Source: Candidatus Dadabacteria bacterium (GTDB taxonomy: Bacteria > Desulfobacterota_D > UBA1144 > Nemesobacterales > CSP1-2). From it: a stretch of DNA of 64,000 nucleotides. The stretch spans positions 320,001-384,000 of the forward strand of contig CAWDVW010000007.1 in the NCBI GenBank assembly GCA_963805855.1. The letters run 5' to 3'. The position numbers were made by a program, and so were the translations under genes. The notes beneath the pieces were generated by a model. It saw nothing but the letters and a program-made list of their open reading frames with translations, had not been told where the DNA came from and did no database searches. Each line of letters opens with the position of its first letter. Positions within the stretch are counted from its first letter, which is position 1. Below, piece by piece: positions 44,135 to 63,239 of the stretch.

Positions 44135-45691
44135 ATGAAGAAACTCAAGATTGGAATAATAGATTTTATAACTAAAGCACCAAATCGATCCTTGTGGGCA
44201 CGTCTCATGCATGCTAATCTCGCCGGAATTATGCCCCAAGTTATTGCCTGCTGGTGTGAAAGCCTTGGGCATGAGGTCTCGTTATTCCTATATACTGGCA
44301 TCGAGGACCTTGACAAAGAAGTGCCGAAAGACGTTGATGTCGTTTTTATTAGTGCATTTTCGCAATCTGCTTTGCAGGCATACGCATTAAGTAGTAGGTA
44401 TAGGCGCGACGGAGTGATCACCGTGCTAGGTGGCCCCCATGCTCGTTGTTATCCAGAGGATGCACAGAAGTACTTTGACTATATTCTGGGTATGACAGAT
44501 GAAAAACTATGCCGGGATCTGCTGCAGGGCTGCGCGCAACAACGACCCCTCGGGCAGTACTTGTCCGCACCTAGACAGCCAACGACTCTTCCGGGAGTCC
44601 GCGAACGCTGGAAGTATATCTCACAAGCGCTTGTAAAGGCCCCTTGGATAAAGGTTGTGCCAATGATCGGTAGTATGGGATGTCCTTATACCTGCAGTTT
44701 TTGCATTGATGCCAATCAGCCTTATCAACCCCTCGAATTTGATGTAATAAGGGACGATCTACGATTCTTACTAAAGAAGTTTGACCGGCCCCTCGTAAGC
44801 TGGTATGACCCGAATTTCGGTGTTAGGTTCGATGATTATATGGAAACGCTGGAGGAAGCGGTTCCAGCTAACAGTGTAGATTTTATTGCGGAGAGTAGTT
44901 TATCCATCCTTTCGGAGCCACACCTAAGACGCCTACAACATAATGGATTCAAGGCTATCTTACCTGGAATTGAATCTTGGTTTGATATGGGGAATAAGTC
45001 AAAAACCGGTCAGAGGCAGGGAATGGAGAAACTCATTGTTGTTTCAGAGCATGTGAACACGATTTTGCGCTATATCCCTTATGTGCAGACAAACTTTGTA
45101 ATTGGACTGGATAGCGATGAAGCCCCTGAATCATTTGAGTTAACAAAAAGATTTGTAGATATGTCACCTGCAGCCTTTCCTGCTTACCCACTTCTAACGG
45201 CTTTTGGCCAAGCTGCTCCAATAAATCTTCAATACCAACGCCAGAATCGGGTTATACCATTTCCTTTTCATTTCCTCAATAACAATCACGCTATGAATGT
45301 AAAGCCAAAAAACTATTCCTGGCCCGAATTTTATGATCATTTGATTGATCTGGCCGAGTATTCATTTTCATGGCGATCTATTTACAACCGTTTCCGCGCG
45401 ACTACTTCTAGAATACCAAGATGGATGAACCTTATGCGTGCGGTATCAAGCGAGGGATTTGGGAGAATCAAATTTTATCGAAAAGTTCGAAGCCTTCTGG
45501 ATACCGACAGAAAATTCAGAGACTACTTTGAAGGAGAAACCATCGATCTTCCGCAGTTTCACGCGAGTATTATTAAGAAAGACCTCGGTAAGCTATGGGA
45601 ATGGCTACCGTCGGGAGCACTGTATCACGACCCCAATGCTTATCTCAACGCGGAGCTACAAAAGAAAAATGAGCAGCGACTACGTGCTTAA
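44135..45691 (+). CDS. Cobalamin-binding-domain radical SAM protein
   Basis: N-terminal Rossmann-like domain with VLGGPH; GCPYTCSFC motif. Confidence 0.88.
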   Translation: MKKLKIGIIDFITKAPNRSLWARLMHANLAGIMPQVIACWCESLGHEVSLFLYTGIEDLDKEVPKDVDVVFISAFSQSALQAYALSSRYRRDGVITVLGGPHARCYPEDAQKYFDYILGMTDEKLCRDLLQGCAQQRPLGQYLSAPRQPTTLPGVRERWKYISQALVKAPWIKVVPMIGSMGCPYTCSFCIDANQPYQPLEFDVIRDDLRFLLKKFDRPLVSWYDPNFGVRFDDYMETLEEAVPANSVDFIAESSLSILSEPHLRRLQHNGFKAILPGIESWFDMGNKSKTGQRQGMEKLIVVSEHVNTILRYIPYVQTNFVIGLDSDEAPESFELTKRFVDMSPAAFPAYPLLTAFGQAAPINLQYQRQNRVIPFPFHFLNNNHAMNVKPKNYSWPEFYDHLIDLAEYSFSWRSIYNRFRATTSRIPRWMNLMRAVSSEGFGRIKFYRKVRSLLDTDRKFRDYFEGETIDLPQFHASIIKKDLGKLWEWLPSGALYHDPNAYLNAELQKKNEQRLRA

Positions 45692-50962: not shown

Positions 50963-53900
50963 TCAATCTTCGATTTTTGATAGGCCCCTTCCCCTCCAGA
51001 TTTCATAAATTGCAGGGATTATGATGAGTGTGAGAATCGTTGATGTTACGAGGCCACCCACCATAGGTGCTGCAATACGTTTCATTACGTCGGCGCCTGC
51101 CCCGTGACTCCACATAAGTGGAAGAAGCCCCATTATCATTGCCATAACGGTCATCATTTTCGGTCTAACCCTTTGTACCGCTCCGTCGTGTATGGCCTTT
51201 GCCAGGCTCTTTGAATCTTTTTGCCCTTCTTTAATCATCTTCTCATAAAACTCATCGAGGTAGATGATCATTACCACCCCTGTTTGAGCGGCAAGCCCAG
51301 CAAGAGCGATAATCCGACCCATGCCGCGACACTCATATTATATCCCAGAATATACAGGAGCCATATACCGCCGACAAGGCGAAAGGAACAGAAAGAATTA
51401 CATAAGTTTCCGTGATTGAATTAAAATTCAAGAATAAAAGGAGAAAGATTATTAGAAGAGTAAGAGGTACTACTAATTTCAGTCTCTCTTTTACCCTGTG
51501 CAGATATTGATACTGTCCGGCCACTCCATGTGATATCCCGGCGGTAGCTTTACATTTTCTCAACAACTTTTTTCGCTTTTTTTACATAACCCAATATTCC
51601 TTCCCCTCATGTCAACATAAACATAGCCAACCTTTTGCCTCCTCCTTTTTTATCTCCGGATGGGCCCGATTGAAATACGAATATCGGCCAACTGGTCTAT
51701 TGGAATCTGCGCGCCAGAGGGTGTGGAACAAAACTCTTTCAAGCTCCTTATGTCCATTCGTAGTTCCCTTGATATCTAACATTTACAGGATATCTCTCCG
51801 GACCTTCGATAGTCCTTGTAATATTATTACCCCCAATTGCTGTTTCTATAACATCTTCTACATTCTCAACATTCAGTCCATAGCTGCTGCTTGATCGCGT
51901 TTGATACTCAAAGTCCAAGAAGTATCCACCCGTTATCCTTTCTGCAAACACACTCCTCGTTCCCGGGAATCCCTGAAGCGCACCTTCTATTGTATTTCCT
52001 ATTTCCTCGATTTTTAAGCTAGGCCCAAAAACCTTTATCCCGATAGGTTCTAAAGCCCGTTGTTAGCATCTCAACGTTTGCTTTTATGGGCATCCAGAAT
52101 ATGTTCGCCATTCCGGGAAATTTTACATTCTGATTCATTTCAGATACCAGCATGTCCCATGTCATTCCTTTTCGCCACTCGCTCCTTTGGCTTGAGGGTA
52201 ACCACAGTTTCAACCATGCTGAGAGGGGCCGGATCAGTAGCCGTCTCCGCGCGACCAATTTTTCCGAAACACCCGCTCAACCTCGGGAACTCCATTAGCA
52301 TTTTATCCTGGGTATGGAGAATTTTCGCGGCTTCGGTTATAGAGATTCCCGGCACTGCGGTACGGCATGTAGAGTATCGTCCCTTCGTTCAATGCGGAGG
52401 CATGAATTCGGAGCCGAGCTGGAGAAAGGGAAAAATGGTTAAGATCAGAATTACAGCTGATGCTAATAAAACTGTTTTTTTGAAACGGAGAACTAACGTT
52501 ACCACAGGATCATAGAGCTTTATAAGTAATCGGCTTATCGGGTTTTCTCTTCCGGCCTGATTTTTCCCTTTATCAGAAGGACGATTAAAGCGGGGTGATC
52601 GTTATTGCTAGAAGAGGGCAAAGAACATGGAAAATGTTTTTGTGAAGGCGAGGGGTTTAAATAGCCTTCCCTCCTGGGATTCCAATGTAAATACAGGTAA
52701 GAAAGAAACCGTTATGATAAAAAGTGAAAAGAAAATCGGTCTTCCCACCTCTTTCATCCCATCGAGAATAACATCGAGTCTTCGTCCTTTTCCCCTCTGT
52801 CTGCCATTTCTCGAGCTTCTTGTGCACATTCTCCACAAGCACTATTGAGGCATCGACCATAGCCCCTATAGCAATCGCTATTCCACCGAGAGACATAATA
52901 TTAGAGGTTAGCTTCATGTAGTACATGGGTATAAAGGCCATTAAAACGGCGAGCGGGATCGTCAGGATAGGAATTATCGAGCTCCTGAAAGTGAAAAAGA
53001 AAAATCACAATGACGATACTTACTATAATACTCTCCTCAATGAGTTTTCCCTTCAGCGTCTCGATAGCGCGGCGATGAGGTCAGAGCGATCGTAAGTGGT
53101 TACTACTTTACACCCTTCGGGCAGAGACGGCTTTATATCTTCGATTTTTTCTTTACCTTTCGATAACATTGAGAGCATTCTCGCCGTAGCGCATAATGAC
53201 GATTCCTCCTACCGTTTCTCCTTTTCCGTCTAGCTCGGCTAGCCCCTTCTCATATCGGATCCGAGCTGCACGTTTGCGATATCCCGTATATAGACAGGAG
53301 TACCATTACCATTTGTGCCCACAAGGACCTTCTCGATGTCTTCAACCGATTTTATGTATCCCCTTCCCCTTACGAAGAATTCTGTAGTGGCGAACTCGAC
53401 AACCCTTCCTCCCACGTCGTTATTGCCCTTCCTAATTGCTTTTATAACCTGATTTATCGGTATACCATATGCGAAGAGTTTATTCGGATCAATTTCTATC
53501 TGATATTGCTTTACAAAGCCTCCCACACTTGCAACCTCAGCAACCCCGGGTACAGCTTCAAGCCAATACCGAAGATACCAATCTTGGAATGAACGCAGTT
53601 CGGCTAGATCGTTTTTTCCGCTTTCATCTACAAGGGCGTATTCAAAGACCCATCCAACCCCTGTTGCGTCCGGTCCTAATGTGGGGGTGACCCCTTCGGG
53701 AAACTTTCCTGTAACTTCGTTCAGATATTCAAGTACACGGCTCCTTGCCCAATATATATCCGTCCCATCCTCGAATATTATATATATAAAGGACAGTCCA
53801 AACATCGACTGTCCGCTAACAAACTTGACTTTGGGGGCGGCAATCATAGTGGTGACAATTGGGTATGTAATCTGGTCTTCAACGAGGTCTGGACTACGAC

Positions 53901-54063
53901 CTTCCCATTCGGTAAATACTATAACTTGGGCGTCAGAGAGGTCTGGAATTGCATCCAGTGGTGTATTTTTCATCGCCCAGAATCCCCAGCTGGCAACGAA
54001 TAATACGAAGACTACAGTTAAGAATTTGTTCCTCGCAGTAAACTCAATAATTTTCTCTATCAT
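50963..54063 (-). pseudogene. cusA: CusA/SilA heavy-metal RND transporter with many frameshifts
   Basis: DAIPDLSD, LGPDATGVGW, NIMSLGGIAIAIG, AETATDPAP and RPKMMT segments in different frames. Confidence 0.9.
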
Positions 54064-54104
54064 TTCTCTTCCCCTTAGTATGTTTTCCGTTGAGTTTTAG
54101 TTTC

Positions 54105-55611
54105 TTAATTCCATTCACATTCATAAATCAATGGATATGTCTCTGGCCTCGACTCTTGGGTCTTTCCCGGCTCCTTTTCGAATTCCATCTCATATGTAGG
54201 TTCACTTTTTTCTGGTGGATTCTCACCCCAAGTTGCCACCGCGGCCTGGATCTGGCTCTCCGCATCAATCAGGAAATTTGCGCGGGACACAACGGCGTCT
54301 CCTTTATTTAAGCCTCTCAGTACCTCATAATAATCATCGACTTTTTGACCTAGTTCGACCCTTCTTATCTGCATTTTCCCTTCCCCCATGTCCACAAAAA
54401 CGAGGTCTTGTTTTCCCGTTCGTAAAACCGCGCTGGCGGGGATGGTCAATTTTTCGCCCAGCGGAATCTCGATCTCGACATTGGCGTACATTTCAGGGAG
54501 GAGTTTTAAATCAGGATTTGGAAACTCTATTCGGACTTTTGTTGTCCTGGTCTCAGGCTGAAGGTGCGGCCATATGAACGTGACCTTTCCAGTGAAGACT
54601 TGGCCTGGAAGAGAAGCAACAGTCATCGAAACTTCTTGACCCAGCTTAACGAGCGAAATTTCATTCTCGTATATGTCCGCGTTAACCCAAACGTTGCTAT
54701 GATCTGCAATCTTATAGATTATTGTGTTTGGTTCTACAAACATGTTTTCAAAGGCGTTCTTGTACATGACATGACCCGAGATGGGAGAATAAATCACAAG
54801 GCTCTTCTTTACCTTTCCGGTTTGCTCTAGATCCCTGATTTGCTGTTCTGAAATGTCCCAGAGCTCTAGTCTCCTCTTCGAAGCTTCTAACAGGGAGTTA
54901 GCGCTATCTGAGATCTCGACGAATTTGCTGTCTCCTAGAATCCTTTTAGATTTTAGGGCAAGAAGATATTCCTCCTGGGTCGAAACAAGTTCGGGGCTAT
55001 AGATTGAAAATAGGGAGTCTCCTTTTTTTACGTGCTGCCATGTGTAATCAACAAACACCTTTTCAATCCATCCGCTTATCTTTGTGTGTATCTGCTCGAT
55101 CTTGGTTTCATCGAGCACTACCATTCCCACGGTACGGATGACCTTTGTCATATCTCGGGTGGTGACGGGCTCTCGTCTTAACACCGATGATTTGCTGCCG
55201 TTCCGGGGATACGATAAATTTGGACGGTGAATCCATACCTTGCTTGTCCGAAGAAGATTTTTCCATGCTCATTCCAGGCATATGATGCATTCCCTGCATG
55301 TCGTTCAATTTCTCACGCGGTTTTTCTTCATTCGAAGTTTGTTTTTTCATCACCGGTACTAAATCCATCTTGCAAATTGGGCAGGTTCCGGGATCTTTAA
55401 GCCTCACGGATGGATGCATTGTGCAGGTCCAGTATTCGATGTCTCCTTCTTCAGTAAGTACGGGCCTATACTGATGTTCATGGCCTTTAGAAAAGAGGGG
55501 AATCTCTTTCAAAACGGGGATCTTGTAGCCGAATTTGTAGAGAACTATGGCAACAAAAATTATGACGATGAAAACGGAAGCAATCTTTAGCATTTTTTTT
55601 CTATTAATCAT
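54105..55611 (-). pseudogene. cusB: CusB-like membrane fusion protein, frameshifted near 55175
   Basis: YWTCTMHP...CPICKMDL metal-binding domain in one frame; YSPEL, LLPEMYA, FLIDAES in another. Confidence 0.88.
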
Positions 55612-55619
55612 TTCAGTGT

Positions 55620-55718
55620 CCTCCCAATTAATTTCCTCCCCCACGAGTGGGGGAGGATTAAGGTGGGGGTTTACCTGCACCCCCATCCTCACCTTCCCCC
55701 TCAAGGGGGAAGGGAAGA
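55620..55718. repeat. Purine/pyrimidine-tract REP-like double hairpin between cusC and cusB
   Basis: CCTCCCCCACGAGTGGGGGAGG and CCTTCCCCCTCAAGGGGGAAGG hairpins with linkers in inverted arrangement. Confidence 0.75.
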
Positions 55719-56979
55719 GCCGTTTGATTGCGTCAAGTCCACGCCCGTAATTTCCTCCAGTCTCGCAATTGCCTTGTGATACTGTGCTAGCTGTCTGTAG
55801 TATTCAATTTCGAAGTTGAAAAGGGTCGTAAGGTTATTCAGGAGCGTGAGAAAATCTATGTCCCCGACCTGATAGCCAGATATCGCCGAATTAAGGGATA
55901 GATTTGATTGAGGTATGATGCCATCCCTGTACAGGTCGATAAGATTCTCTGACGTTTTGGCGGAGAGGTAATTATCATTTATCATGAACAAGACGTCTTG
56001 CTTTTCACTAGAGTATTCTGCCCTTGCTGCACTCAATTCTAGAGCTGCTTCCTGAACACCAAACCTCTGTTTACGCCAAAAATAGAGGGGCACTCTTAAA
56101 CCCACGTCTACTTCCCGATACCCTGGATTCCGCCACCCATCATGCCCATAATTCCCGGTGAAACACCTATGGAGAAGTCGGGATAGTATTGTTTCTTGGC
56201 CAGGTTTAGCGCTTCCGTTTCACTCTCCACAATCTTTTCTCTCATTTTCAGGATAGGAGAGTTATCTTCAATCAGTTTATAAAGATCCTTTGCCGTTAAG
56301 TTTAGGGCTGGTTTCTCTAAATCTTCCGGGGCCCCTAACGTATCCACAGGGGGCCGATTGAGAATACTGTTTATCTTTGATTCAATAACCCCTTTTTGCT
56401 GTCGGAGAATCTCAAGCTGTTCGATAAATTTAGAGACCTCTACCTGCGCCCTTATGACATCCTGCTGAATCCCAAGTCCCACCTCGTACTTCGCCTCAGA
56501 AATCTTAAGAAATTTCTCTGATAGCTCCTTATTCTTTTGCGTGATTTCGATTGACTTAACAATCAGGTACCAGTCATAATACGCCTGCTTAAGATCCGCT
56601 GTTACCTTCCTTAAAACCGCTTCGTAAGATTGCTCTTGTGCTTCAGCCTTTTGTTTGGCGACCTTTTCTTTGAGGGAAAGCTTTCCGGGAAATGGTAGTT
56701 CTTGAGTAAATGGAAACCGTAACATACTATTGCCGAATTCATTGAGGGTTATACGGTCAAATTCCACGTTTTGCCACCTGACTCCAATAGTTGGGTCAGG
56801 CAACGAGCCTTCCTGCGAAGGCCGCTTGGTAGACGCTTCCCACCGAGCCCTCGCAGCTTTTATGTCGGGGTTGTTTGAAGGGCCTCTTCTACAAGTGATT
56901 CTAGCCTTACAGGTTGATTTGCGTGAGAATTGGCTCCTAAAAAAACCGTAACAATTATCATTCCTAAGAAAATTTTCAT
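55701..56979 (-). pseudogene. TolC/CusC-like outer membrane factor, frameshifted
   Basis: MKIFLG signal peptide at 56979 with GGAGG RBS; LPDPT, QELPFPGKL, YYPDF and YQVGDIDFLTLL in successive frames. Confidence 0.85.
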
Positions 56980-58432: not shown

Positions 58433-60610
58433 ATGAGCAAGTTGATAATAGCTTCAAACAGATTGCCCATAACGATTACTAAGAGAAAGGGGAAATTTAA
58501 GGTTCAATCAAGTACCGGCGGTCTGGTAACAGCATTAGGCGGATTAGAGGATTCTCAACGGCACGTATGGATAGGATGGCCGGGCATTTCTATGAGTCCT
58601 TCTAATCCCGAAGCAAACGATATAAAGGCCTTATTGGAACCCGAGGATTATCACCCGGTTTTTCTCTCCAGACACGACATTGATGATTATTATCACGGTT
58701 TTTGTAACGAAACGATTTGGCCTCTTTTTCACTACTTTGTCCAGTTTGCCGTGTATGATAAGGATTATTGGAAAGCCTATAAAAGGGTGAATGAGGCATT
58801 CTGTGATGAGATAATGGAGATAGCTGGGCCGGAGGACGTTATCTGGATACATGATTACCATCTTATGATTCTGCCTAAGCTCTTAAAGGAAAAGTTGCCA
58901 GGGGCAAAAATTGGATTCTTTTTGCATATACCGTTTCCGTCTTCCGAAATCTTCCGCTTGATTCCCTGGTGCAAGGATATCATAGAAGGCCTTCTCGGGG
59001 CTGACTTAATAGGGTTTCACACCTTTGATTACGTCAGGCATTTTCTAGAAAGCGTCCGACGTATATTGGGATACGAGCATGCGCTTGGTCAAATCACGGT
59101 GCATTCCCGTGCTGTAAAGGTTGATGCCTTTCCAATGGGGGTGGACTACGAAAAATTTTCAAGCGCCGTTCACAATCCGGATGTTCAAAAGAGAGTTAGA
59201 AGTCTGCGGCAGGAAATAGGCGAGGAGTTTAACATAATCCTATCGATTGATAGGCTTGATTATACGAAAGGAATTCCTCAAAGGCTGGAAGCATTCGATC
59301 TCTTTTTGAAACGAAACCCCGGCTACAAGGGCAAGGCGATATTAATATTGGTCGCAGTACCGTCCCGCACAGAGGTTAAGCGTTACAAAATATTAAAACA
59401 ACAGGTAGACAATCTCGTTGGAGATATAAATGGTCGACATGGCAAAATTGGCTGGATTCCTATTTGGTATTTGTATCGGTCATTCCGATTTAACGACCTC
59501 GCAGCCCTATACTCTATTTCCGATGTTATTTTTGTTACGCCCCTGAGGGATGGTATGAACTTAATTGCTAAGGAGTATGTTGCAACTAAAAATGATGGAA
59601 ATGGAGTACTCATACTGGGAGAAATGGCTGGAACGGCAAAGGAGTTAATCGAGGCCATTATCATAAATCCAAATGATGTAGAAGCAACAGCAGATTCTCT
59701 GAAAGTCGCATTAGAAATGCCTACTGACGAACGGGCTAGTCGAATGGAAACTATGAGACTCAGACTTAAGCGTTACGATGTCAGAAGGTGGGTAAGCGAT
59801 TTTATGGAAAAGCTCGATCATATCACGGATGTTCAGAAGCAGATGAAATCAAGAGTATTATCACCGGATTTTAGAAGGAAAATAACAGAAGGGTATTCAG
59901 AGGCTCAAAATCGCTTATTCTTGCTGGACTATGACGGCACATTGATGCCATTCAATGAAAACCCAGAAAGGGTAGAGCCAGACCATGATCTAGTTGAGAC
60001 ACTGACGTCTCTGGTTTCCAGGCAAAATAATCAATTGGTCGTTATTAGTGGTCGGGGCAGAAAAACCTTAGAGGGATGGGTTGATAAATTAACCGATGGC
60101 TTAGTCGCAGAACACGGGGTATGGATTAAGGACGAAGAGTGGAAAGCTATCGAAAACCTCTCGGATGAATGGAAGAAAGACATCAGGCCGATACTCGAAA
60201 CTTATGTCGATAGGACTCCGGGCTCATTTATTGAAGAGAAGGATTATTCTCTAGTCTGGCATTTTAGAAAAGTCGATCCGGCATTGGCCATGGTTAGGGT
60301 AGGGGAGTTAAAGGAAATTCTTTTACATATAACTGGAAGCTTTAATGTAGGGGTTCTCGAGGGTAACAAGGTGATTGAGATCAAGAATGCTGAGGTAAAT
60401 AAGGGTAGGGCGGCGCGGTATTGGCTTTCTAAGGCGAAATGGGATTTTATATTATCGATTGGCGATGATTCCACAGATGAAGATATCTTTGAGGCGCTCC
60501 CAGATTGGGCATATTCGATTAAAGTCGGCTTAGGCCCATCAAAGGCAAGATTTACTATCCCTTCCTTTATCGAAGTGAGAGAGCTACTAAAGGAATTGGC
60601 AGTCGTGTGA
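58433..60610 (+). CDS. Bifunctional trehalose-6-phosphate synthase/phosphatase (OtsA-OtsB fusion)
   Basis: SNRLP, WIHDYHL, DRLDYTKG, RDGMNLIAKEY; HAD motifs LDYDGTL and GDDSTDE. Confidence 0.96.
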   Translation: MSKLIIASNRLPITITKRKGKFKVQSSTGGLVTALGGLEDSQRHVWIGWPGISMSPSNPEANDIKALLEPEDYHPVFLSRHDIDDYYHGFCNETIWPLFHYFVQFAVYDKDYWKAYKRVNEAFCDEIMEIAGPEDVIWIHDYHLMILPKLLKEKLPGAKIGFFLHIPFPSSEIFRLIPWCKDIIEGLLGADLIGFHTFDYVRHFLESVRRILGYEHALGQITVHSRAVKVDAFPMGVDYEKFSSAVHNPDVQKRVRSLRQEIGEEFNIILSIDRLDYTKGIPQRLEAFDLFLKRNPGYKGKAILILVAVPSRTEVKRYKILKQQVDNLVGDINGRHGKIGWIPIWYLYRSFRFNDLAALYSISDVIFVTPLRDGMNLIAKEYVATKNDGNGVLILGEMAGTAKELIEAIIINPNDVEATADSLKVALEMPTDERASRMETMRLRLKRYDVRRWVSDFMEKLDHITDVQKQMKSRVLSPDFRRKITEGYSEAQNRLFLLDYDGTLMPFNENPERVEPDHDLVETLTSLVSRQNNQLVVISGRGRKTLEGWVDKLTDGLVAEHGVWIKDEEWKAIENLSDEWKKDIRPILETYVDRTPGSFIEEKDYSLVWHFRKVDPALAMVRVGELKEILLHITGSFNVGVLEGNKVIEIKNAEVNKGRAARYWLSKAKWDFILSIGDDSTDEDIFEALPDWAYSIKVGLGPSKARFTIPSFIEVRELLKELAVV

Positions 60611-60745: not shown

Positions 60746-60774
60746 TTGACATAATAGTCCATATCCTCTAAAAT
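60746..60774 (+). promoter_or_regulatory. Near-consensus sigma70 promoter of the radical SAM gene
   Basis: TTGACA, 17 nt, TAAAAT; AAGGAGG RBS before ATG 60813. Confidence 0.75.
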
Positions 60775-60812
60775 TGATGTTAATTTAAAAGACAAAACAA
60801 GGAGGGTATATA

Positions 60813-62723
60813 ATGGATTTAATTAGAATGCTGGAAAAGACATTGAGTACATCTTCTAATTTAACTTGGAAGGGCTTGAAGGCTGTAAATGAATTTATGC
60901 CTGCTAAACCCTTTCAGCCAAACTGGGCACATGCACCGCTACCTAAATCACAAAAGAGAACTAAGCCCCCTCTTGGATTGCCTAGGGAAACCGATTCTCT
61001 TTGCCCGAAATGTGTGAGAGAATTGAGGGATGATATACAAGCAGACCGTATAAACTGGCAGGATGTGATAAAAACCAATCCAGGAATGATAACAGCTCGT
61101 ATCTACGAGGATGATGGAAAGGTTCTGATGGAAAAAACCTGCGAAAGACATGGACGATGTGAAGATTTAATCGCTATTGATAAAGACTTTTTCTTACATA
61201 TGGAATCACTATTTATGGGCGATGACATGCCAATTCCCGAAAATATGCTTCGCAACCATGGTGCTTCATCAATTAAATACAGCCGGGGAGCCTGCCTCAA
61301 TGTAGACCTCACAAATCGTTGTAACATGATGTGTAGGCCCTGCTACATGGACGCAAACCAGGTTGGATATGTACATGAACTTACAATTGACGACGTTAGA
61401 AAAATTTTGACAGACGCCGCAAATTTTAAACCAAGACGGCAGACAGCCGTAATGTTTGCGGGTGGCGAACCCACCATTTCGCCTATTTTTCTTGAGTCAT
61501 GCAAGATCGCAAGGGAACTCGGATTCTTTTCCGTCCAAGCCGCGACAAATGGTTTGAGATTTGCCCTTGAGCCGGGTTTTGCTGAAAAAGCAAAGGAGGC
61601 CGGCTTACGAATAGCTTATCTTCAGTTTGACGGCGTTAGTAATCAAGCGCATGCTCATAGAAAAATTGCTAACCTTTTCGATGTAAGGCAAAGAATTATA
61701 GAGAATTGCCGTAAAGCAGGAATAAATGTCATGATAGTTCCAACCATTGTTAACACGGTCAATAATGACCAGGTTGGACCGATACTCGATTTCGCAATCA
61801 ATAATGTTGGAACGATTGCGGGGATAGCCTTTCAGCCTGTGTCATTTACCGGGAGAGACGATGACATACCCGATGATCAGAGGAGAAGAGAGAGGTACAC
61901 GACTTCTCACCTGGCTCACGAGATTTCAAAATATACGGACGGAGTTATAGACCCGATGAGGGACTGGTTTCCCCTTTCGGCGCTTGCGCCATTTGCAGAT
62001 GCTGTAGACCTAACCAGGGGTATGGACGATTCCTGGGGCTCAATGAAATGTGGATGCCATCCAAACTGTGGTGCTGGTTTTGTTCTATTGGTTAATAAGC
62101 AAACCAAGGAAGTTGTTCCGGTGACAAAGATCATTAATTTCAAACAGTTGTTAAAAGACATGCTTGATATAGCAGATAATTATCGCGGTCCCAAGTGGGC
62201 AATGGCGCAAATGGGTCTATCTCTCATGAGGAACTACAAGCCTGATGAAGCTCCCAAGGGATTAGACTTCCGTAAGCTCGTAAATATCTTCCTTGAGCAA
62301 TCGGGCGCTAAAAACTTTGGATCGCCGACCAATCCTGAATTCGATTGGGGTATTATGTTTATTGCAGCGATGTGGTTTCAGGATGTATATAATTATGACT
62401 TCAGACGAACTGAAAGGTGTGTAATACCGTACGGAACTCAGATGGGAGAAATTTCCTTCTGTGCGTATAATACAGGAATCGGGTGGAGGTGGATTGTAGA
62501 AAAGGAATTCCAGAATGCAACAACAAAAGAGTGGTTTAAGGAAAAAGGAAGGCACCCAATCTATGCGAACCAGAAACCAATAGATCTTCCTGAATACGAA
62601 ACACCCGTTGACTTAAACGGGAATCCGGTACAATGGAAGGGAAGGTTGTCAAAGGTTAAATCGCCGGAATCCATAAATGGAAAAGACAAAGCAGTGGAAG
62701 AGGGTGTATCGGTTACTACATAA
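60813..62723 (+). CDS. Radical SAM protein homologous to tetraether lipid synthase Tes/GDGT-MAS (MJ0619 family)
   Basis: SLCPKC...KTCERHG, DLTNRCNMMCRPC, GGEPT, AYLQFDG, FQPVSFTGR, CHPNCG, MWFQDVYNYD..R..RC...FCAYN. Confidence 0.82.
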   Translation: MDLIRMLEKTLSTSSNLTWKGLKAVNEFMPAKPFQPNWAHAPLPKSQKRTKPPLGLPRETDSLCPKCVRELRDDIQADRINWQDVIKTNPGMITARIYEDDGKVLMEKTCERHGRCEDLIAIDKDFFLHMESLFMGDDMPIPENMLRNHGASSIKYSRGACLNVDLTNRCNMMCRPCYMDANQVGYVHELTIDDVRKILTDAANFKPRRQTAVMFAGGEPTISPIFLESCKIARELGFFSVQAATNGLRFALEPGFAEKAKEAGLRIAYLQFDGVSNQAHAHRKIANLFDVRQRIIENCRKAGINVMIVPTIVNTVNNDQVGPILDFAINNVGTIAGIAFQPVSFTGRDDDIPDDQRRRERYTTSHLAHEISKYTDGVIDPMRDWFPLSALAPFADAVDLTRGMDDSWGSMKCGCHPNCGAGFVLLVNKQTKEVVPVTKIINFKQLLKDMLDIADNYRGPKWAMAQMGLSLMRNYKPDEAPKGLDFRKLVNIFLEQSGAKNFGSPTNPEFDWGIMFIAAMWFQDVYNYDFRRTERCVIPYGTQMGEISFCAYNTGIGWRWIVEKEFQNATTKEWFKEKGRHPIYANQKPIDLPEYETPVDLNGNPVQWKGRLSKVKSPESINGKDKAVEEGVSVTT

Positions 62724-62729
62724 TGTAAA

Positions 62730-62768
62730 AAATGGGGACAGACACTTATTAATAAGTGCCTGTCCCTG
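62730..62768. repeat. REP-like hairpin or possible terminator between convergent genes
   Basis: GGGACAGACACTTATT-AATAAGTGCCTGTCCC inverted repeat. Confidence 0.65.
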
Positions 62769-62894: not shown

Positions 62895-63239
62895 TTAATA
62901 TCCAAAAAATACGGACGCTCCGATAAATCCGGGGATGACATAGAAGAGTGGCACATAATTTCCGTAGGCTTTACCGTAGTAATGACGTGAATGATAATCA
63001 TGGTTCCTGTGGTGGCCATGTCGATTAAAACGACCGTAATGATTTTCTTGATTATTTTGGTGCCAATGACCCTTATGATGTCCTGGGTTTCCATCGTGGC
63101 CTTTGTAGCTATGATCAGCACGATGTTCATACCTTCCCCTATGGTTTTTATGCCCGTCTGAGGATTTGGCTGCACCAATGTTCGTCGCGGCTAAGGAAAA
63201 TATCAACATAAGTATCGGCACGATAAAAAGTCTGTTCAT
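62895..63239 (-). CDS. Small secreted His/Gly/Arg-rich protein
   Basis: Signal peptide, H-rich low-complexity core, hydrophobic tail; AAGGAG RBS. Confidence 0.7.
   Translation of the reverse strand: MNRLFIVPILMLIFSLAATNIGAAKSSDGHKNHRGRYEHRADHSYKGHDGNPGHHKGHWHQNNQENHYGRFNRHGHHRNHDYHSRHYYGKAYGNYVPLFYVIPGFIGASVFFGY

Follow-up and report, generated by a model that had tools for sequence, protein, structure and literature searches.

The window analysed here is a stretch of 64,000 nucleotides from a Candidatus Dadabacteria bacterium (assembly GCA_963805855.1, contig CAWDVW010000007.1, positions 320,001 to 384,000). Close to its end lies an intact open reading frame (ORF; 60813..62723, plus strand) that starts with ATG and encodes a protein of 636 residues. 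Its matches in Pfam, NCBIfam, the PDB and Foldseek mark the coding sequence as that of a Tes-like radical SAM enzyme, a relative of the archaeal tetraether lipid synthase Tes, also known as GDGT-MAS (GDGT, glycerol dialkyl glycerol tetraether). The protein belongs to a very large group of bacterial homologs that we call type B, as distinct from the canonical bacterial Tes, which we call type A. In the following, G000 denotes the genome of the window, other G numbers are other genomes, L numbers are loci or contig stretches, and C numbers followed by coordinates are contigs of G000; the protein from the window is referred to as the query.

Pfam recognises a zinc ribbon (Zn_ribbon_HMPTM, PF23545, residues 57-121, E 1.9e-13) and a radical SAM domain (Radical_SAM, PF04055, residues 166-328, E 4.4e-20). 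Among the NCBIfam models the Tes equivalog NF045702 ranks first (E 2.1e-104, 349.9 bits) and is matched over almost its whole length (positions 2-484 of 486); the intein-containing Tes model, which has a cut-off of 1700, gives 198.9 bits, and no generic radical SAM family exceeds 76 bits. The sole strong match to a solved structure is to GDGT-MAS of M. jannaschii (7TOL/7TOM), where phmmer aligns query residues 93-574 with chain residues 36-511 (E 1.3e-76, 261.5 bits). We also modelled the protein with AlphaFold2 from an alignment of 54 clade members; the model has a mean predicted local distance difference test score (pLDDT) of 74.2 and a predicted template modelling score (pTM) of 0.80; its confidence is low at the cluster-binding loops and over the final 50 residues. 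In Foldseek this model matches 7TOM with E 2.3e-32 and a target-normalised TM-score of 0.83 over 538 columns at 29% identity, and the next fold, MoaA, follows at a TM-score of 0.51. The match to 7TOM extends over the C-terminal domain that contains the lipid pocket. No fused long form of the protein was seen among proteins of 1114-3180 residues, a negative result that carries little weight, and the Protein Atlas labels the relatives radical SAM, mostly from Acidobacteriota. Judged by its sequence and its predicted fold, the query is a true full-length homolog of Tes/GDGT-MAS, as the initial annotation of this DNA had proposed from motifs.

For GDGT-MAS four metal sites are described (Lloyd 2022, PMC9433317): a rubredoxin-type iron held by C9X2C12X20C33X2H36, an N-terminal [4Fe-4S] cluster on C73, C77, C80 and a histidine, the radical SAM cluster, and a C-terminal [4Fe-4S] cluster with the labile ligand Met439. 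Met439 and Tyr459 are reported there as completely conserved across 1000 archaeal homologs. In the query, the rubredoxin-like zinc ribbon (residues 57-121; 60981..61175, plus strand) has the ligands C64, C67, C110 and H113 with a spacer of 42 instead of 20 residues, and the radical SAM core (residues 166-328; 61308..61796, plus strand) carries C170x3C174x2C177; the ligands of both sites are invariant in 121 of 121 clade members. Within the C-terminal auxiliary-cluster region (residues 413-553; 62049..62471, plus strand), delimited by the alignments to 7TOL and the numbering of Lloyd 2022, residues C419, C536, C550 and M520 align with the ligands of the C-terminal cluster, so that M520 would take the place of Met439, and Y540 aligns with Tyr459. 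These five residues are invariant in 121/121 or 54/54 clade members, and C413, C415 and H416 are additional invariant residues of type B. Every motif listed in the initial annotation could be located: besides CxxC...CxxH and CX3CX2C these are QFDG (271-274), FQPVSFTGR (340-348), CHPNCG (415-420), MWFQD (520-524), RC (535-536) and FCAYN (549-553).

The N-terminal auxiliary cluster is represented by a remnant only (residues 141-160; 61233..61292, plus strand). Alignments to 7TOL and to type A show that its cysteine triad is gone and that His149 is invariant; in the phmmer alignment the CpydCglC of M. jannaschii is unmatched, and the query reads MLRNH, a gap, and GASS. The missing cysteine-rich segment before the radical SAM motif had been noticed at the outset, and the triad is absent from the query and from all 121 clade members alike. 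If the aligned residues bind as they do in GDGT-MAS, the enzyme would use two [4Fe-4S] clusters and one rubredoxin-type site, compared to three and one in GDGT-MAS. The role of the N-terminal cluster is given as unknown in Lloyd 2022 (PMC9433317).

The difference is not confined to the triad. We compared the query and its best 120 database relatives (n=121, type B) with 120 canonical bacterial Tes sequences (type A). In each of the two protein database searches the best 120 proteins were all bacterial. The type B sequences have 199 near-invariant positions in common. The CxxxCxxC triad upstream of the radical SAM motif is found in 0/121 type B and 120/120 type A sequences, and the rubredoxin spacer measures 42 residues in all 121 of the former and 20 residues in 117 of the 120 latter. 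CxCHxxC is present throughout type B (121/121), whereas the corresponding contexts in type A read HxHC or CHxHC; the motif around the methionine is MWFQD in 120 of 121 type B sequences and MHFMD, the M. jannaschii form, in all 120 of type A. Type B proteins are typically about 625 residues long and type A proteins about 560-590. The type A protein at L091, from a sister genus, scores 543.4 bits on the Tes model and 408.5 bits against 7TOL, with the triad aligned, compared to 261.5 bits against 7TOL for the query. The two types are thus members of one family that differ in triad, spacer and scores; both occur in a single bacterial family, and both can co-occur with the fusion gene described below. 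With GDGT-MAS itself (MJ0619, 7TOL/7TOM; MA_1486; Maeo_0574) the query shares the domain order, the fold, the CxxC...CxxH site, CX3CX2C, the cysteines of the C-terminal cluster, and the equivalents of Met439 and Tyr459. It differs from GDGT-MAS in lacking the N-terminal cysteine triad, in an insertion of 22 residues in the rubredoxin domain, in the invariant C413/C415/H416, in MWFQD for MHFMD, in N- and C-terminal extensions of about 55 and 60 residues, in a score below the 450-bit cut-off, and in a host without an archaeal GGGPS above threshold.

The two types fall into separate groups in a 49-row tree, with a support of 100 for the type B group in the SH-like approximate likelihood ratio test (SH-aLRT). 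The type B rows from the family of G000 form one clade (support 96) beside all remaining type B rows (support 96). This tree is a quick maximum-likelihood run in IQ-TREE without archaeal rows, with a very long outgroup branch and with the careful search unfinished, and we draw no conclusion on the root from it. The names in the databases follow the same division: at NCBI some type A proteins, from Thermodesulfobacteriota and from metagenome-assembled genomes (MAGs) of Terriglobia, are called "tetraether lipid synthase Tes", and type B proteins are called "radical SAM protein" only. Some relatives carry the JGI label "7,8-dihydro-6-hydroxymethylpterin dimethyltransferase" (HMPTM). HMPTM is a superseded annotation of MJ0619, which was later shown to be GDGT-MAS, and the HMPTM activity was not corroborated (Lloyd 2022, PMC9433317). 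The initial annotation had held that placement among HMPTM-like proteins would count against a Tes assignment; this was a confusion, since the name is the old one for GDGT-MAS.

We searched the Tes model over 120 genomes of the phylum of G000. Matches at E <= 1e-40 occur in 12 of these, all within the order of G000, and no genome has two. Type A genes (452-553 bits, over the cut-off; complete ORFs of 583-590 residues) are present in six genomes (G002, G004, G012, G013, G014 and G015) and type B genes (325-350 bits; ORFs of 626-657 residues) in five (G000, G005, G006, G007 and G008). G016, from the same order, has a third, TrsS-like kind of 469 residues (L098:1462-3643), which scores 358 bits on the TrsS model and 357 bits on the Tes model; a methyltransferase-like ORF follows it. 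By genus within the family of G000, type B is found in g1, g4 and g5 and type A in g3 and g9, and each Tes-bearing genome of the family has one type, never both. Outside the phylum, relatives of type B at 52-58% identity come from MAGs titled Polyangia/Myxococcales, Latescibacterota, Gemmatimonas and Pseudomonadota, and from the acidobacterial Vicinamibacterales, Thermoanaerobaculia and Polarisedimenticolia. Type B also occurs in cultured bacteria, namely Labilithrix luteola (L052) and isolates of Sorangium and Polyangium. In an even sample of Acidobacteriota, 153 of 251 genomes have a Tes-family match at E <= 1e-60 (150/248 without the three unpublished genomes G269, G147 and G172), and in 37 the match is over the cut-off, that is, type A. 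The organism studied here is itself not acidobacterial, in agreement with the impression gained from the letters alone.

The gene had been described as standing alone. This holds for the genome of the window; in two other genera of the family, however, the Tes-like gene is part of a lipid gene cluster. The Tes-like protein at L009 shares 75% identity with the query and has the same sequence as its counterpart in G008; it is encoded last in a series with gaps of 3, 3 and 85 bp, after an 849-residue AMP-binding/PP-binding/acyltransferase fusion, a family 2 glycosyltransferase (GT2), and a DAGK_cat lipid kinase. This block of four genes (L009:2623-10390) sits between smpB and dtd. In G000 smpB and dtd are adjacent (C7:669537-670725), so the four genes were inserted or lost as one unit. 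In G007 the order is the Tes-like gene, GT2, a radical SAM protein of 379 residues, an ORF of 120 residues, the same fusion as at L009 (a fatty-acyl ligase, a carrier and an acyltransferase), and the DAGK_cat kinase, with a B12-radical SAM gene divergently upstream of the cluster. The GT2 is similar to two lipid glycosyltransferases, with sub-cut-off scores of 197-208 bits for HpnB and 184-188 bits for CruG.

The orthologs of these genes in G000 are dispersed: the fusion lies at C7:188247-190820, a pair of GT2 and radical SAM genes at C2:544986-547713, and the kinase at C2:283095-284081. The pair (L099:4986-7710, equal to G000:C2:544986-547710, plus strand) consists of the HpnB/CruG-like GT2 followed by an uncharacterised radical SAM protein of 371 residues, and the same pair comes directly after the Tes-like gene in G007 (L100:9548-11936). 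The window also encodes a protein of 518 residues (44135-45691, plus strand) that weakly matches B12-binding and radical SAM domains as well as TIGR04013. We considered this B12-binding protein as an ortholog of the B12-radical SAM protein of G007 and rejected the assignment (BLASTP, 26.6 bits).

The fusion gene is found in the type B genomes G000, G005, G006, G007 and G008 and in the type A genomes G002 and G004, that is, in 7/10 Tes-bearing genomes of the family. It was not found in the type A genomes G012, G013 and G014, in the four Tes-less family members that were searched (G001, G009, G010 and G011), or in 33 sampled genomes from the other families of the order; the search left out G003. 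In 8 of 9 genera the Tes-family gene and the fusion are either both present or both absent, a count in which kin are not independent. An exclusive link between the fusion and type B, as seen in a first sample (3/3 type B against 0/38 others), is ruled out by the fusion in G002 and G004. We further inspected 80 loci from other lineages, using crude ORF clusters within 6 kb that were labelled from one representative each. An AMP-binding gene is near the Tes-like gene in nine of them, often 20-142 bp upstream, a CDP-alcohol phosphatidyltransferase is directly downstream in six, and an LpxL-type acyltransferase is near in six; at least one of these three lipid gene kinds is present at 17/80 loci. 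These counts are lower bounds, as many contigs are short and ORF picking in GC-rich DNA missed 24 of the 80 Tes-like genes.

The neighbours bear on the possibility that the substrate is not a lipid, but, for example, a cofactor or peptide, as for TrsS or in the old HMPTM annotation. TrsS (NF045646) is the second-best NCBIfam family for the query, with 208.1 bits over residues 93-380, and in G000 the Tes-like gene is not flanked by lipid genes. However, the TrsS score is far under the cut-off of 490 and comes from the N-terminal half only: the zinc ribbon and the radical SAM core are shared, and the C-terminal half is unmatched. The fold match to GDGT-MAS covers the C-terminal domain with the lipid pocket, lipid gene neighbours recur in three phyla, and the HMPTM activity of MJ0619 could not be corroborated (Lloyd 2022, PMC9433317). 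We consider a non-lipid substrate improbable.

A second question is which lipid the host could provide. Domain searches of the G000 genome, which is 93.8% complete, returned 0 matches to HGD-D and 0 to DUF2229, which we take to be markers of the PlsA/Ger ether-forming enzymes. For PcrB/GGGPS the genome has just one sub-threshold match of 21.4 bits, and no ElbD-like multidomain NAD_binding_4 protein was found in it, NAD_binding_4 occurring only in frames of 308-365 residues. The branched-chain keto-acid dehydrogenase marker E1_dh, which bears on iso-fatty-acid synthesis, has one match of doubtful specificity. The results for HGD-D, DUF2229, PcrB/GGGPS and NAD_binding_4 argue against the formation of true tetraethers, branched or isoprenoid GDGTs, in this organism. 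The homology to Tes would favour such a product, as would the proposal that bacterial Tes homologs act in the synthesis of branched GDGTs (brGDGTs; Zeng 2022, PMC8941075) and the finding that S. usitatus, which carries a Tes homolog, makes brGDGTs (bioRxiv 10.1101/2022.04.07.487437). The S. usitatus homolog, for which 40% identity and E 1e-139 to MA_1486 are reported, nevertheless appears to be type A and not type B. It is thus unlikely that this organism is the brGDGT producer suggested in the initial annotation, and tetraethers of any kind are a poor candidate for the product. Since PlsA/Ger and GGGPS genes were not found in the genome, the likeliest product is an ester-linked lipid of the diabolic-acid type. 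GDGT-MAS crystallised with two phosphatidic acids from E. coli in its pockets and thus binds ester phospholipids (Lloyd 2022, PMC9433317), so ester lipids fit the fold.

The best explanation, to which we assign a probability of about one half, is that this protein is a type B member of the radical SAM family of Tes/GDGT-MAS that most likely acts on membrane glycerolipids and would give an ester-linked membrane-spanning or macrocyclic lipid of the (iso)diabolic-acid type, not a GDGT. This reading builds on what is observed, namely the homology, the fold, the conserved ligands, the loss of the N-terminal triad, and the lipid gene neighbours in relatives. The substrate, product and mechanism that we infer for the type B enzyme are the following. 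The radical SAM cluster would cleave S-adenosylmethionine (SAM), and the resulting 5'-deoxyadenosyl radical would take a hydrogen from the carbon at the end of a lipid tail. A sulfide of the C-terminal [4Fe-4S] cluster would then hold the carbon radical, and a second SAM-dependent abstraction on another tail would lead to the C-C bond. Ordinary ester-linked glycerolipids would serve as substrates, and the products would be tetraesters of the diabolic-acid type or macrocycles. Regarding the earlier suggestion of membrane-spanning lipids made with a variant cofactor set, the alignments bear out the variant set, and the membrane-spanning product is plausible.

Several observations weigh against this reading. 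The query misses the 450-bit cut-off of the Tes equivalog (349.9 bits for the protein and 350.4 bits in the genome search), which the M. jannaschii, S. acidocaldarius and M. acetivorans controls pass. It is just 28-29% identical to GDGT-MAS in the structural alignment and 35% identical, over 531 columns, to the type A Tes of the sister genus (L091). One of the four metallocofactors of GDGT-MAS is absent throughout clade B, and no lipid genes adjoin the Tes-like gene in G000. The stem of type B in the 49-row tree is very long (4.56 changes per column), a length that would be consistent with a shift in function. Both types, furthermore, occur together in at least three acidobacterial genomes (G168, G264 and G347). 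Strict mutual exclusion of the two types, which holds in the family of G000, therefore fails in Acidobacteriota; the types are not simply interchangeable everywhere, and their co-occurrence argues against simple redundancy. Two of these genomes, G264 and G347, have a type B and a type A gene on one strand at a distance of 4-6 kb (L106:6255-13491 and L107:5990-15480). The gene between them, of about 1060 residues and in opposite orientation, is BNR/sortilin-like, and we rejected it as a lipid gene. The literature adds that Tes homologs were detected in just 3 of 14 acidobacteria that produce iso-diabolic acid and in 0 of the other producers tested, and that in Thermotoga and Thermoanaerobacter diabolic acids are made by a different enzyme, Mss (both Sahonero-Canavesi 2022, PMC13159169). 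We found no assay of any type B protein in the literature searched, supplements aside.

An alternative explanation is that type B has the Tes fold and acts on lipid tails but carries out another reaction: macrocyclisation only, a mid-chain cross-link, or some other C-H functionalisation of a dedicated glyco- or phospholipid made by the co-clustered fusion, kinase and GT2. The distinctness of clade B with its long stem, the altered cofactor set with the extra invariant C413, C415 and H416, and the presence of type B alongside type A in some Acidobacteriota would all fit this explanation. So would the clustering with a further uncharacterised radical SAM protein and, in G007, with a B12-radical SAM protein, and there is a precedent in GDGT-MAS itself, which makes both macrocyclic archaeol and GDGT (Lloyd 2022, PMC9433317). 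However, the residues implicated in C-C coupling, that is, the equivalents of Met439 and Tyr459 and the cysteines of the C-terminal cluster, are invariant in type B, and types A and B replace each other genus by genus in the family of G000. We therefore treat a different reaction as a tentative alternative, one we would not expect to be correct but take more seriously than a non-lipid substrate, and retain the coupling of glycerolipid tails as the preferred explanation.

Upstream of the Tes-like gene, the neighbour at 58433-60610 encodes a fusion of trehalose-6-phosphate synthase and phosphatase (Glyco_transf_20, E 7e-162; Trehalose_PPase, E 1.4e-45), and this adjacency had been taken as a hint of a role in stress. 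The trehalose neighbour is shared with G005 (L094), from the same genus, and neither of the two other type B genera shows it; a genus-specific adjacency of this kind does not sustain the proposed role. The spacer of 202 bp between the two genes holds a ribosome-binding site (AAGGAGG, 60800..60806, plus strand, read from the sequence, 6 nucleotides upstream of the ATG) and a sigma-70-like match (TTGACA-17 nt-TAAAAT, 60746..60774, plus strand). The latter agrees with the consensus at 11 of 12 positions and is a candidate for the strong promoter named in the initial annotation; it is a pattern match only, and the 6 kb that were scanned returned 25 matches of this kind where shuffled sequence would give 13.2. 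Two salt-marsh metatranscriptome libraries contain contigs that are identical to stretches of the Tes-like gene (2 x 151 nt in X20 and 1 x 237 nt in X21); as DNA may occur in such libraries, we do not count them as transcription. A palindromic hairpin with a 14-bp stem (62735..62766) lies in the gap between the stop codon and the next gene, which is convergent; the scan classes it as a terminator-like element of the minus strand.

The genes that follow the Tes-like gene in the window code for a small secreted protein rich in His, for a malic enzyme, and for proteins of thiol-disulfide exchange and cytochrome c maturation. The small protein (62895-63239, minus strand) has a signal-peptide-like start, a body rich in His, Gly and Tyr, and no Pfam match, and it is kept downstream of the Tes-like gene in L007. 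Elsewhere in the window, a CusCBA-like heavy-metal efflux operon of the resistance-nodulation-division (RND) type (50966-56803, minus strand) has several frameshifts. It encodes an outer-membrane factor, an HMBD protein, a CusB-like fusion protein and an AcrB-family pump, the last of these scattered across all three frames; a break at 56105-56110 divides the OEP gene, and either decay or assembly indels would account for the damage. Just past the window, an 840-residue fusion of PqqD, radical SAM/SPASM and class I methyltransferase domains (L087:6878-10036, equal to G000:C7:386878-390036, minus strand) adjoins a DUF2064/CofC-like gene; its weak match to the Tes model is unrelated to the Tes finding.

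The class of bacterial Tes homologs is not new. Homologs from many phyla have been in print since 2022, with their function unconfirmed: bacterial members were seen in a similarity network (Lloyd 2022, PMC9433317), and Zeng 2022 (PMC8941075) reported 456 bacterial homologs, among them those of Solibacter and Koribacter at 40-42% identity and that of Edaphobacter aggregans at 32%. A later survey lists homologs for 281 bacterial MAGs, among which are 10 of 262 Desulfobacterota, and states that their activity is unconfirmed (Environ Microbiol 2025, PMC11868695). According to Chen et al. 2025, as relayed in FEMS Microbiol Ecol 2026 (PMC13023045), K. versatilis, which has only a Tes homolog, makes iso-diabolic tetraesters. 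Mss resembles the enzyme proposed here in being a radical SAM protein with a proposed coupling of acyl tails to diabolic acids, the reaction that we propose for the query; it belongs to a different family and is called "remotely related" to Tes in Sahonero-Canavesi 2022 (PMC13159169). The gene described here is thus one more member of a large group that had already been noticed, and the defining differences of the subfamily and its lipid gene clusters are modest additions. In the literature searched, supplements aside, we found no statement that a subgroup of bacterial homologs lacks the N-terminal cluster. The screens of Sahonero-Canavesi 2022 (PMC13159169) used thresholds of >=30% identity and E <= 1e-50. 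As the query is only 28-29% identical to GDGT-MAS, thresholds of 30% may have excluded type B from earlier screens.

Palaeoclimate proxies in wide use are built on lipids of the brGDGT and diabolic-acid kinds, for which the bacterial producers and the enzymes are known only in part. A wider proposal, which we offer as speculative and think more apt to fail than to hold, is that type B is a functionally distinct subfamily that couples tails with one fewer iron-sulfur cluster and, together with the fusion, the lipid kinase and GT2, builds unrecognised ester-linked membrane-spanning glyco- or phospholipids in many phyla. Such a subfamily could be the missing synthase of iso-diabolic acid or brGDGT precursors in aerobes without Mss, overlooked by screens at >=30% identity. 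If type B does couple acyl tails, then the range of candidate producers would widen greatly, to the salt-marsh and soil lineage of G000, to Polyangia, to Latescibacterota, and to most Acidobacteriota, and homolog screens that rely on identity to archaeal Tes would have to be revised. A natural Tes without the N-terminal [4Fe-4S] cluster would, in that case, show that this cluster is dispensable for the chemistry.

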